The notes beneath the pieces were generated by a model. It was not told the DNA's origin. It did not search any database and saw only the letters and a list, made by a program, of their open reading frames with translations. Positions 7,011 to 14,242 of a stretch of DNA of 16,794 nucleotides are shown here, in pieces; positions within the stretch are counted from its first letter, which is position 1, and the number at the start of each line of letters is the position of its first letter. The translations under genes and the position numbers were made by a program. This stretch comes from a virus (Duplodnaviria > Heunggongvirae > Uroviricota > Caudoviricetes), in the IMG/VR virus record IMGVR_UViG_2547132127_000011. The stretch is one strand, 5' to 3'.

Positions 7011-7224
7011 GAGCGGATCGGCATATTTTACCCGAACTGAATCATGATTATTCTCGCCCGTGGTGCCAGGACGCTGGGGCCACTTTCCCGCCTGTTAATG
7101 TGCTCGCCAATATTCATTACCAGGCGGGAAAACGATCGGTGCGATTACTGATTTCCTTATGAAAAACGGTTGAGTGTTTGCCGCGTCCTGGAGTTCCTTA
7201 CTTAACCCCAGGACTTTTTTTATG

Positions 7225-7233
7225 CAGAGAATA
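7225..7233. repeat. IS1 target-site duplication, left copy (CAGAGAATA)
   Basis: Identical 9-mer at 8002..8010 immediately flanking the other IS1 end. Confidence 0.9.
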
Positions 7234-7248
7234 GGTAATGACTCCAAC

Positions 7249-7752
7249 TTACTGATAGTGTTTTATGTTCAGATAATGCCCGATGACCTTGTCATGCAGC
7301 TCCACCGATTTTGAGAACGACAGTGACTTCCGTCCCAGCCTTGCCAGATGTTGTCTCAGATTCAGATTATGTCGCTCAATGCGCTGAGTGTAACGCTTGC
7401 TGATAACGTGCAGCTTTCCCTTCAGGCGTGATTCATACAGCGGCCAGCCATCCGTCATCCATACCACGACCTCAAAGGCCGACAGCAGGCTCAGAAGACG
7501 CTCCAGTGTGGCCAGAGTGCGTTCACCGAAGACGTGCGCCACAACCGTCCTCCGTATCCTGTCATACGCGTAAAACAGCCAGCGCTGACGTGATTTAGCA
7601 CCGACGTAGCCCCAATGTTCGTCCATTTCAGCGCAGACAATCACATCACTGCCCGGTTGTATGCGCGAGGTTACCGACTGCGGCCTGAGTTTTTTAAGTG
7701 ACGTAAAACCGTGTTGAGGCCAACGCCCATAATGCGTGCACTGGCGCGACAT
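7249..7752 (-). CDS. insB: IS1 InsB (transposase C-terminal part, expressed as InsAB' by frameshift)
   Basis: 167-aa ORF matching IS1 InsB (…[25 protein letters not shown]…). Confidence 0.9.
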
Positions 7753-7946
7753 CCGACGCCATTCATGGCCATATCAATGATTTTCTGGTGCGTACCGGGC
7801 TGAGAGGCGGTGTAAGTGAACTGTAGTTGCCATGTTTTACGGCAATGAGAGCAGAGATAGCGCTGATGTCCGGCAGTGCTTTTGCCGTTACGCACCACGC
7901 CTTCAGTAGCGGAGCAGGAAGGACATCTGATGGAAATGGAAGCCAC
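7671..7946 (-). CDS. insA: IS1 InsA (transposition repressor / N-terminal transposase part)
   Basis: 91-aa [46 protein letters not shown]... matching IS1 InsA. Confidence 0.9.
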
Positions 7947-8001
7947 GCAAGCACCTTAAAATCACCATCATACACTAAATCAGTAAGTTGGCAGCATTAC
8001 C

Positions 8002-8010
8002 CAGAGAATA
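8002..8010. repeat. IS1 target-site duplication, right copy (CAGAGAATA)
   Basis: Identical to 7225..7233. Confidence 0.9.
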
Positions 8011-11316: not shown

Positions 11317-11609
11317 CAGAAGAACTTATCACCCTGGAAGAAGTGAAACTCCATTGCCGCATCGATGGCGACGATGAAGACCAGTTAATCAGCGGATACA
11401 TTGCCGCATCGCTTGAGGCGTGCCAGATACACATAGGCAGGCGCTTTGATGACGGGCTGGCGTTCACGCCAGCCATAAAGATTGGCTGCATGATGTTTAT
11501 CGCTCACCTGTATGAAAATCGCCAGATTGTCGCGGATAACGCAAAAACACGCGTACCCATGACGATAGGCGCACTCTGGACGGCTTACCGTGATGTGGGG
11601 GTGTACTGA
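11313..11609 (+). CDS. gp6-like head-tail connector protein
   Basis: N-terminal LEEVKLHCRIDGDDEDQLISGYIAAS and C-terminal FIAHLYENRQ resemble the phage gp6-like connector family; ATGA coupling to the upstream gene. Confidence 0.75.
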   Translation: MTEELITLEEVKLHCRIDGDDEDQLISGYIAASLEACQIHIGRRFDDGLAFTPAIKIGCMMFIAHLYENRQIVADNAKTRVPMTIGALWTAYRDVGVY

Positions 11610-12049
11610 TGCCGTGGCAACCATTAAGACGATGCACAGAACCAGGCTGTAACAGGCGCGTTAAATCCGGCAAGTGTGAGGAGCACAGGCGGGCGGCATG
11701 GCGTGCAGAGGATGCCAGACGAGGACACCGCCGCGCGCGTGGATATTCCAGACAGTGGGACAAATACCGCGCCATGTATCTGAGTAAAAACCCGTTATGC
11801 GTGCGATGCCTTGAGAAGGGGATATATACGCCCGCCGTGGTGGTGGATCACATTATCCCGATTAATGGCGGTGATGATGTTCTCTTCTGGCCCGAATGGA
11901 ACCATCAACCATTGTGCCAGGCGTGTCATAACCAGAAAACGAAATGGCTTGATCCGGCAACAAAAAGCAAGCGTGCCGCAGGTGGATTTCGTGAAGAGGA
12001 AGAACGGGCTGCTAACCGCAATAACTGGATGTATGACGCTGATGAATGA
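11609..12049 (+). CDS. HNH endonuclease (packaging-associated)
   Basis: Cys-rich zinc-binding motifs (CTEPGC, CVRC) and HNH core DHIIPINGG...N...LCQACHNQKT; located immediately upstream of terS as in cos-type HK97-like packaging modules. Confidence 0.85.
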   Translation: MPWQPLRRCTEPGCNRRVKSGKCEEHRRAAWRAEDARRGHRRARGYSRQWDKYRAMYLSKNPLCVRCLEKGIYTPAVVVDHIIPINGGDDVLFWPEWNHQPLCQACHNQKTKWLDPATKSKRAAGGFREEEERAANRNNWMYDADE

Positions 12050-12215
12050 GCGGGAACAAAACCGCCTTATCCGTGGACTTATAAGGCAGCGTGACGCATG
12101 GAAGACACAGGAAACAGGGCATAAAGATAAAGCGTCAGGACGCGCAGAACGCATCACAGCGAAGCGATTAACCGACCGTGACCGCGAGGTTATGGAATGT
12201 TTCCGCAATCGCTGA
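12033..12215 (+). CDS. Possible small basic protein (60 aa); doubtful
   Basis: Internal ATG of track ORF 11811..12215, overlapping the HNH 3-prime end; Arg-rich; no convincing ribosome-binding site. Confidence 0.25.
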   Translation: MTLMNEREQNRLIRGLIRQRDAWKTQETGHKDKASGRAERITAKRLTDRDREVMECFRNR

Positions 12216-12285
12216 TGAGGCTGTATGACGGGGTGGGGGGCGTTTTCAGGACAAACCCGACCCCGCCTACCTGGATGATATCGCC

Positions 12286-12597
12286 GTGAAGCAGTGGCGG
12301 GAAAAATCGCGGCAGCTTGCGGAACGGGGAGACCTGACCCCCGCCGACTGGAGCAATCTGGAACTGTATTGCGTCAACTACTCCATTTACCGGAAAGCCG
12401 TTGCAGACCTTGCGGCGCGCGGGTTCAGCATTGTTAACAGTCAGGGCGGCGAGAGCAGAAACCCCGCATTAAGCGCAAAATCCGACGCTGAAAGAGTGAT
12501 GATAAAAATGGCCTCCTTGCTCGGTTTTGACCCGATAAGCCGCCGTAAAAATCCACCGGAAACAGAAGAAGAGGACGAGCTTGACCGCTTGGAATAA
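12286..12597 (+). CDS. terS: Terminase small subunit (P27-family-like)
   Basis: GTG start; LTPADWSNLELYCVNYSIYRKAVADLAARGFSIVNSQGGESRNPALSAKSDAERVMIKMASLLGFDPISRRK matches the P27-family small terminase pattern as recalled. N-terminus uncertain (no ATG, weak ribosome-binding site, in-frame TGA at 12226). Confidence 0.72.
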   Translation: MKQWREKSRQLAERGDLTPADWSNLELYCVNYSIYRKAVADLAARGFSIVNSQGGESRNPALSAKSDAERVMIKMASLLGFDPISRRKNPPETEEEDELDRLE

Positions 12598-14242
12598 GTA
12601 CGCAGAAGACGTAAAAACGGGCAAAATTCCGGCCTGTAAACGGTTAAAACAGGCTGTTAAACGGTACTTTTCGGACCTTAAAAGCCCCCTTTACACGTTC
12701 GATCGTGAGGTTGTGGAGCGGTTTATTGCCTTTTCCAGGGTGTGCCCGCACGTAAAAGGACCGATGCGTGGCAGACCCATTGAGCTGGAGCCGTGGCAGC
12801 AGTTCGCCTTTGCGTGCATCCTCGGCTTTAAGGTTAAGGCCACCGGACGGCGCAAATACACGAGCGCCTTTATCGAAGTGCCGCGCAAAAATGCGAAATC
12901 CACGACCGCCGCGATTCTGGCTAACTGGTTTCTGATTATGGAGAACGGTCAGCAGGATATCTACACCGCAGCGGTGAGCCGTGACCAGGCGCGGATCGTG
13001 TTTGATGATGCGCGTCAGATGTGCCTTTTATCCCGACCGTTACGCAGGCGGGTGAATATTCAGGCGCATAAGGTGATACACCCGAAAAGCAACAGCCTGT
13101 TAAAGCCGCTGGCAGCAAAAGCGGCAACCATCGAGGGGACAAACCCCAGTCTTTCCATCGTGGACGAATACCACCTACACCCCGATAACGGCGTTTATTC
13201 CGCGCTTGAGCTGGGGATGGGCGCACGTCCCGAAGGGCTGTTATTTGCCATTACCACATCGGGCAGTAACGTCGTTTCAGCCTGTAAACAGCACTATGAT
13301 TATTGCTGCCAGATCCTGGACGGCGAAGAGGTCAACGATTCAATTTTTGTACTGATTTACGAACTGGACGACGAAAACGAGGTTGATGATCCGGCGATGT
13401 GGATAAAGGCGAACCCTAATATTGATGTTTCCGTGGATCGTGAAAAACTGGCCTCAACCATCCAGAAAGCGCGGGGTATTCCGTCGCAGTGGGTGGAGAT
13501 GATGACAAAGCGATTTAATATCTGGTGTCAGGGGACTACCCCGTGGATGGGTAATGGTGCATGGGCTGAGTGTGCCGGAACGTTCACGGAGGAAGATTTA
13601 CACGGTCAGGAGTGTTACGCGGGGCTGGACTTATCATCAACCAGCGATATTTCCAGCGTATGCTATGCCTTTCCGGTCGGTAAAACCATTATGCTGATTT
13701 CCCGTCATTATCTGCCGGAGTTCCAGCTACAGAACCCCGCCAATAAAAACCGCGCTGTCTATCGCCAGTGGGCTAAAGCGGGCTGGATACGCACAACGCC
13801 AGGTGACTGCATTGATTACGACCGGATCAGAGATGACATCATGCAGGATGCGGAGAAATTTAATATCAGGCTGGTGGGCTTTGATACGTGGAACGCCACG
13901 CATCTCAGGACGCAATTACAGGGGGCTGGTTTTGAGGTGGAGCCGTTCCCGCAAACCTACCTCAGATTCAGTCCGGCGGCGAAATCGTTCGAAGTTTTTG
14001 TTAACCGCAGGGTGATTGTGCATCGTGGCGATCCGGTGTTGTCCTGGTCGATGAGTAACGTCGTGATGCAGAGTGACGCGAACGCCAATATCAAGCCGAA
14101 CAAGAAAAAATCACCGAACAAGATAGACCCGAGCGTAGCGGCGCTGATGGCGTTTGGTACATTCCAGGCAGAGCATGAGGATTTTGCTTTTGATATAAGC
14201 GACAGCCACCGCCAGAAACTGGAAGAATTTAGCGGGGTGTAA
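12581..14242 (+). CDS. terL: Terminase large subunit
   Basis: 553-aa ORF, TTG start with GAGGA upstream, overlapping the terS end; N-terminal ATPase region and C-terminal nuclease region typical of the terminase large-subunit family. Confidence 0.9.
   Translation: MTAWNKYAEDVKTGKIPACKRLKQAVKRYFSDLKSPLYTFDREVVERFIAFSRVCPHVKGPMRGRPIELEPWQQFAFACILGFKVKATGRRKYTSAFIEVPRKNAKSTTAAILANWFLIMENGQQDIYTAAVSRDQARIVFDDARQMCLLSRPLRRRVNIQAHKVIHPKSNSLLKPLAAKAATIEGTNPSLSIVDEYHLHPDNGVYSALELGMGARPEGLLFAITTSGSNVVSACKQHYDYCCQILDGEEVNDSIFVLIYELDDENEVDDPAMWIKANPNIDVSVDREKLASTIQKARGIPSQWVEMMTKRFNIWCQGTTPWMGNGAWAECAGTFTEEDLHGQECYAGLDLSSTSDISSVCYAFPVGKTIMLISRHYLPEFQLQNPANKNRAVYRQWAKAGWIRTTPGDCIDYDRIRDDIMQDAEKFNIRLVGFDTWNATHLRTQLQGAGFEVEPFPQTYLRFSPAAKSFEVFVNRRVIVHRGDPVLSWSMSNVVMQSDANANIKPNKKKSPNKIDPSVAALMAFGTFQAEHEDFAFDISDSHRQKLEEFSGV

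Follow-up and report, generated by a model that had tools for sequence, protein, structure and literature searches.

The question raised by the locus described here is whether an unusual order of head and packaging genes marks a distinct lineage or a truncated prophage. The locus lies in a stretch of 16,794 nt assigned to the Caudoviricetes (IMG/VR record IMGVR_UViG_2547132127_000011; the window, meaning the whole stretch that was analysed, whose coordinates are used throughout), and the module in question occupies positions 7222–14242. We conclude with high confidence that the window holds a decayed capsid-forming phage-inducible chromosomal island (cf-PICI), the Shigella flexneri counterpart of the island EcCIEDL933, inserted between roxA and phoQ. 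This reading is based on gene content, gene order, homology, insertion site and three lesions of the copy. The initial annotation, made from the letters alone, had listed capsid, protease, portal, head closure, connector, HNH, terS and terL, all on the plus strand, and had taken this order to suggest a lineage of its own rather than a truncated prophage.

Profile searches of the open reading frames (ORFs) of the window against Pfam and PHROGs (a few ORFs shorter than 90 aa were searched with Pfam only or left unscanned) bore out this gene order. They also upheld the family assignments of the capsid, portal and connector proteins, an error in which had been named as the finding that would overturn the interpretation. 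On the plus strand the order is capsid, S78 protease, portal, Hc1, Ad1, HNH, terS and terL. The statement that everything lies on the plus strand held for the module genes and failed for an IS1 element within the capsid gene; the annotation had also omitted a 60-aa ORF between HNH and terS. The features of the module are as follows.

7222–7233, plus strand: start of the capsid gene, its first 4 codons (MQRI), severed from the remainder by IS1 (from the sequence).
7234–8001, minus strand: IS1 of 768 bp, which splits the capsid gene behind codon 4; insA/insB lie on this strand.
8011–9156, plus strand: rest of the HK97-fold major capsid gene (8011–8826 and 8827–9156; PF05065 on both halves, profile positions 1–166 and 169–278).
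9196–9768, plus strand: prohead serine protease (S78), intact (PF04586, E 3e-47; 185/190 residues identical to EcCIEDL933).
9770–10981, plus strand: portal protein, intact (PF04860, E 5e-89; 396/403 identical to EcCIEDL933).
10978–11316, plus strand: head closure protein Hc1, intact (PF05521, phrog_25).
11313–11609, plus strand: gp6-like head-tail adaptor Ad1, intact (PF05135, phrog_40).
11609–12049, plus strand: HNH endonuclease, packaging accessory factor, intact (PF01844, phrog_144; 145/146 identical to EcCIEDL933).
12033–12215, plus strand: conserved 60-aa ORF of unknown function, overlapping the 3' end of HNH (phrog_3173, E 7e-37).
12230–12267, plus strand: left-hand portion of the presumed cos region, still present, with GGGGTGGGGGGCGTTTTCAGGAC at 12230–12252 followed by CCCCGCC at 12261–12267.
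12268–12597, plus strand: remnant of terS, Terminase_4 / P27 family (PF05119, alignment and translation comparison).
12581–14242, plus strand: terminase large subunit, terL, intact (PF03354 and PF20441, phrog_9; 547/553 identical to EcCIEDL933).

The element is the counterpart, in position and in sequence, of EcCIEDL933, the prototype cf-PICI of E. coli O157:H7 EDL933. That 15.4-kb island carries int, alpA, rep, capsid, protease, portal, connectors, HNH, terS and terL but lacks genes for a tail; the capsid-first order is the conserved organisation of proteobacterial cf-PICIs, whose packaging modules resemble the EcCIEDL933 module at 50–90% (Alqurainy et al., bioRxiv 10.1101/2022.09.08.507074). 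We located the island at approximately 1,680,329–1,694,760 of the EDL933 chromosome (NZ_CP008957.1), between roxA and phoQ and with an identical layout, and the window element occupies the same site. DNA identity to EDL933 was 97.7% over positions 8004–12267 and 96.2% over 12261–14539, and the int regions are 95% identical. Shared features include the gene order, the head and packaging genes and two small ORFs (phrog_3173 and phrog_1561). The two islands differ in host, which here is Shigella flexneri, in the mid left arm, which diverges, and in the replication gene, a D5_N primase here versus a DUF927 protein in EDL933. They also differ in the state of the module, since in the window the capsid gene is broken by IS1 and a nonsense codon, and a 98-bp deletion affects the terS start and the HNH–terS spacer. 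The window itself is 99.97% identical to S. flexneri 5 strain 8401 (CP000266.1; 4 mismatches in 14,214 bp, zero gaps), and no identical sequence was found among complete E. coli genomes.

All sequence-testable membership features used by SatelliteFinder for cf-PICIs (PMC10085698) were present. The left arm carries int, an AlpA-type regulator and a primase-replicase; homologues of an own major capsid, prohead protease and portal are encoded, the capsid gene being a pseudogene in this copy; Ad1 and Hc1 were recognised by their families (PF05135/phrog_40 and PF05521/phrog_25); and HNH, terS and terL are all represented, terS in a 5'-truncated form. The capsid–protease–portal–connectors block is followed by hnh–terS–terL, as is usual in Proteobacteria, and similarity of the module to EcCIEDL933 amounts to 96–98% at the DNA level and 95–99% at the protein level. 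Tail and holin genes, which are 'forbidden' components, were absent among the ORFs tested: no match to a tail or lysis family was obtained in Pfam or PHROGs from int to attR, and at about 15 kb the element has insufficient space for a tail module. With classical Gram-negative PICIs of the EcCICFT073 type it has in common an int–alpA–rep left arm, the format of an att-bounded island of about 10–15 kb and dependence on a helper. Classical PICIs, however, lack portal, adaptors and terL and rely on helper capsids. Portal, adaptor, connector and terL are forbidden components in the PICI model (PMC10085698), and all four (Portal, Ad1, Hc1 and terL) are present here.

For EcCIEDL933, formation of its own small capsids, self-packaging and transfer with helper tails have been shown experimentally (bioRxiv 10.1101/2022.09.08.507074), and the mechanism outlined here follows that literature. 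In an intact member, Int and AlpA excise the island and the primase replicates it. One rightward operon yields a small HK97-fold capsid from capsid, protease, portal, Hc1 and Ad1. The concatemer is cleaved by HNH, TerS and TerL at a cos site that presumably lies in the HNH–terS spacer. Cleavage at that point would therefore place terS first and HNH last, and the packaged linear DNA would read terS–terL–att–int–...–capsid–protease–portal–Hc1–Ad1–HNH; tails alone are supplied by the helper phage. The gene order of the window is thus the normal layout of the family.

A relative sequenced from virions supports the cos site that had been proposed between HNH and terS from the adjacency of the two genes. 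vB_KppS-Ant (LR881103.1) was published as a filamentous ssDNA phage of a novel genus; the record is a contig that SPAdes assembled from Nextera XT libraries, made with DNA from virions propagated on K. pneumoniae DSM 30104, and no statement of reordering of the genome or of mapping of its termini was found in the publication (PMC8006926). The contig matches the K. pneumoniae ATCC 13883 (= DSM 30104) chromosome at 100% identity and spans the excised att junction; it is in fact packaged cf-PICI DNA, presumably that of KpCIDSM30104 of a 2025 preprint. Its first base lies 22 bp before terS, and it runs to just past HNH and the small ORF, with its right end stopping exactly after the motif that is retained in the left part of the presumed cos region of the window. 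There is no terminal overlap, and 69 bp of the HNH–terS spacer (9570–9638 of the ATCC 13883 locus, the counterpart of roughly 12379–12450 in the EDL933 locus) are absent. Tagmentation libraries are expected to lose sequence at physical ends, and we infer that the ends of the contig are the physical ends of the genome. The arrangement of this contig, permuted from terS to HNH, is exactly that foreseen in the initial annotation for a packaged genome beginning with terS–terL and carrying the capsid block at its far end. The Klebsiella element has the same gene order and spacer motifs as the window element, and differs in being intact, in its integration site, in an extra 765-aa gene after terL and in sequence, terL being 81% and the capsid 65% identical.

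Two motifs are conserved in the spacer, GGGGTGGGGG..GTTTTCAGGAC and CAAATTTTTAYGCAMGG.AATTTTTT.GAAAATAA, and are recognisable from E. coli to Pasteurella; the window has kept the first (12230–12252) and lost the second. A special hairpin in the spacer was considered and is not supported, as its DNA folded no better than shuffled sequence (z = 0.29). The 60-aa ORF that precedes the spacer is also present in vB_KppS-Ant, where its C-terminus RDRExxECFRNR is kept, and it shows 100% nucleotide identity among four E. coli elements whose sequences otherwise diverge by 1–3%.

Packaging from a site outside this spacer, for example from the repeat-rich stretch that separates the last ORF from attR, or by a headful mechanism, is very unlikely. 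Degenerate repeats of about 48 nt do lie between the last ORF (orf93) and attR in EcCIEDL933, and neither a mapping of the termini of EcCIEDL933 nor of a cf-PICI cos site was found in the literature examined. The virion-derived Klebsiella contig, however, runs without interruption downstream of terL and across att, breaks only in the HNH–terS spacer and has no terminal redundancy; the cos site of HK97 is itself flanked by HNH and terS; and cohesive cos ends have been reported for cf-PICI DNA (bioRxiv 10.1101/2025.02.11.637232).

The comparison with HK97 delimits what is unusual in the locus. The reference genome (NC_002167) has the order terS, terL, portal, protease, capsid, Ad1 and Hc1, and then the tail genes, HNH standing at the right end, in agreement with the canonical order cited in the initial annotation. 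In HK97, a helper-type phage whose cos packaging is HNH-dependent, HNH and terS flank cos, and their adjacency is therefore canonical, as HK97 has it too once its genome is seen as a circle; only the position and the internal order of the head block are non-canonical. While the two systems share protein families, an HK97-fold capsid and HNH and terS around cos (presumed in the window), the head block of the window stands apart from terL, its internal order is reversed (capsid–protease–portal, Hc1–Ad1), and tail and lysis genes are lacking among the ORFs tested. By BLASTP, identity to HK97 was 27% for terL, 26% for the portal and 39% for HNH (the last over a partial alignment), and neither the capsid nor terS gave a significant match to HK97 proteins; a close relationship to helper-phage genes was rejected on the latter ground. 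Along its whole length, Hc1 shows 47% identity to HK97 gp7, which makes this tail-facing protein by far the most helper-like of the set. Such likeness fits a satellite-built head that would dock onto helper tails.

The same order recurs widely outside the window. The module, covering at least 80% of the query, was found in 404 of 5,426 complete E. coli genomes. A survey with one genome per species gave 80 loci with terL 69–100% identical, from Enterobacterales, Aeromonas, Pasteurellaceae and Gilliamella, and 61 of these were assessable, having at least 7 kb of sequence upstream of terL. The full order capsid–protease–portal–Hc1–Ad1–HNH–terS–terL was seen in 47 of the 61, among the remaining 14 loci ten keep the order with no detectable Hc1 between portal and Ad1 and four have only a partial set of module genes, and in no assessable locus did head genes lie downstream of terL or in the HK97 order. 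Related elements occupy at least four different chromosomal sites. The subgroup without detectable Hc1 at that position comprises Erwinia, Pantoea, Xenorhabdus, Serratia, Yersinia and Leclercia, and Symbiopectobacterium instead has a 25%-identical Hc1-like ORF between HNH and terS. In E. coli Evo1 a cf-PICI (1–14366 of the locus) directly adjoins an HK97-like prophage (14873–23333), whose terL is truncated at the junction, so that the canonical order of the prophage stands beside that of the satellite.

These data bear on the possibility that the locus, rather than belonging to a satellite lineage, goes back to an HK97-like prophage that was rearranged and truncated, with loss of the tail and lysis genes; we regard this as extremely unlikely. 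All head and packaging proteins do belong to HK97-type families, and the copy does bear lesions of decay. Nevertheless, an att-bounded unit of about 15 kb with int–alpA–primase and exactly this order is found in hundreds of E. coli genomes and dozens of other species, at several different sites, and its prototype is an experimentally functional satellite. When terL and an intact capsid were compared by tblastn with 50,697 phage records, identity to bona fide phages did not exceed approximately 36% for terL and 40% for the capsid; matches of at least 58% were confined to satellite-sized records (vB_KppS-Ant and Pasteurella Pmp7/Pmp8), a 3.8-kb Salmonella fragment and an uninspected 106-kb Klebsiella record. 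No phage with head genes more than 60% identical in this order, and no tail-bearing intermediate, was seen among these records. HK97-like temperate prophages have modules for tail, lysis and immunity together with the order terS–terL–portal–protease–capsid–Ad1–Hc1, a description that does not apply to the element. The separate lineage suggested at the outset is thus retained, as a cf-PICI, while the novelty implied by that suggestion is not: gene order and lineage are already known, the order being the published signature of proteobacterial cf-PICIs.

The integrity of the element, which the initial annotation had implied, did not withstand closer comparison. On either side of IS1 stands one copy of the 9-bp target duplication CAGAGAATA (7225–7233 and 8002–8010), and excision in silico of IS1 together with one copy of the duplication restored a capsid frame of 385 codons, in which 379 of 386 aligned positions (stop included) equal the EcCIEDL933 capsid. 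Codon 276 of this frame is an in-frame TGA (8824–8826), where three E. coli relatives have TGG (Trp276). The third lesion is a deletion of 98 bp in the HNH–terS spacer relative to EDL933, between two CCCCGCC repeats, of which the copy at 12261–12267 forms the microhomology at the junction. It takes out the conserved A/T-rich spacer motif, and thereby part of the presumed cos region, as well as the ribosome-binding site, ATG and first 7 codons of terS, leaving a GTG at 12286 as the first in-frame start candidate. S. flexneri 8401 carries all three lesions, with DDE_Tnp_IS1 at the matching place, whereas strain SFBU1023 has the TGA and the 98-bp deletion and no IS1 in its capsid gene; the insertion is thus polymorphic among S. 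flexneri strains. As SFBU1023 has the other two lesions without it, IS1 is the most recent, and the nonsense codon and the deletion came first.

In EcCIEDL933, single-gene deletion of any module gene abolished transfer, except that without the hypothetical gene 1792 transfer was severely reduced (bioRxiv 10.1101/2022.09.08.507074). Because its capsid gene is doubly inactivated and its terS has no start, we predict that the S. flexneri element can neither form capsids nor package itself, so that own-capsid formation and transfer would have been lost; the copy is almost certainly non-transferable and appears to be a decaying relic. Both genes are pseudogenes in this copy and should be marked as such. 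That the island is instead intact and currently transferable is scarcely credible, as its intact protease, portal, Hc1, Ad1, HNH, terL, int, alpA and primase genes stand beside a capsid broken by IS1 and by TGA at codon 276, a terS without a start and a spacer lacking a conserved motif, and as EcCIEDL933 is not transferred without capsid or without terS.

Several points nonetheless weigh against the interpretation as a decayed cf-PICI packaged from the HNH–terS spacer. attL lies upstream of the window and thus outside it, so that the left boundary was judged from relatives only. The ends of vB_KppS-Ant, which place the presumed cos, could in principle be an accident of assembly. The loss of function is predicted from sequence, and the remaining module genes are intact, with protein identities of 95–99% to EcCIEDL933, which implies either that the decay is recent or that the genes have been kept for another reason. 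Another cf-PICI could conceivably complement the element in trans, since its left cos motif is still there. There is also a slim chance that the degraded copy is more than debris. It keeps intact portal, protease, Hc1, Ad1, HNH and terL genes and the left half of the presumed cos, and it may have been retained because these gene products hinder HK97-type phages or because a co-resident cf-PICI can still package it in trans. Separately, the conserved two-part spacer motif and the 69-bp gap of the virion contig may define the cf-PICI cos site.

Outside the module, the following features delimit the element.

1–1230, plus strand: tyrosine integrase, the left end of the element (Pfam Arm-DNA-bind_3 and Phage_integrase).
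1605–1793, plus strand: AlpA-family regulator (PF05930, E 5e-18).
3471–3770, plus strand: DUF4222 protein (PF13973), encoded upstream of the primase in every relative that was examined.
3767–5515, plus strand: D5_N/DUF5906/Pox_D5 primase-helicase, the pri-rep gene (Pfam).
14256–14537, plus strand: conserved 93-aa ORF of unknown function, the final gene of the element (phrog_1561, E 1.5e-55).
15184–15258, plus strand: attR region, with the core-like repeat CGGTGTAGTTAATGGTGTAGT at 15233–15253.
From 15334, minus strand: phoQ, after attR.

The int, alpA and primase genes are intact, and a few small ORFs of the left arm match only PHROGs of unknown function. Positions 1851–3460, in the middle of the left arm, match EcCIEDL933 and other relatives only in part, and their long ORFs, such as one of 248 aa at 1851–2597, look non-coding; this accessory region is mosaic. 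An Rfam scan at gathering thresholds gave no match over the whole window. At the right end, the 93-aa ORF holds the same position in all relatives, and the attR region pairs with the attL/attR repeats of EcCIEDL933, whose copies stand 15,228 bp apart. Between the last ORF and attR, EcCIEDL933 has 4–6 degenerate repeats of about 48 nt with the core GCGGTAACTGGTTGATATTTTCG (14745–15182 of the EDL933 locus); the window retains only part of this array at 14529–14741, and a repeat search from its last ORF to attR returned weak two-copy repeats only. Four copies of the motif TTGTTCCACGTTGTT, allowing up to 2 mismatches, are present in the window, where 0.03 would be expected by chance. Two of them directly follow int (1278–1292 and 1298–1312, both on the minus strand), one lies upstream of the capsid operon (6992–7006, plus strand) and one is in attR (15201–15215, plus strand), and the motif is also present in attL of EcCIEDL933. 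These copies may be arm-type sites of the integrase or binding sites of a regulator.

As a discovery the locus is of small value, the layout being published and the element the counterpart of the prototype. For annotation, the region is to be described as a cf-PICI remnant rather than a prophage. Additionally, the lesions that are shared and not shared among strains offer a small example of how a satellite decays in Shigella, and the natural 98-bp deletion could help to dissect the cos region of cf-PICIs.

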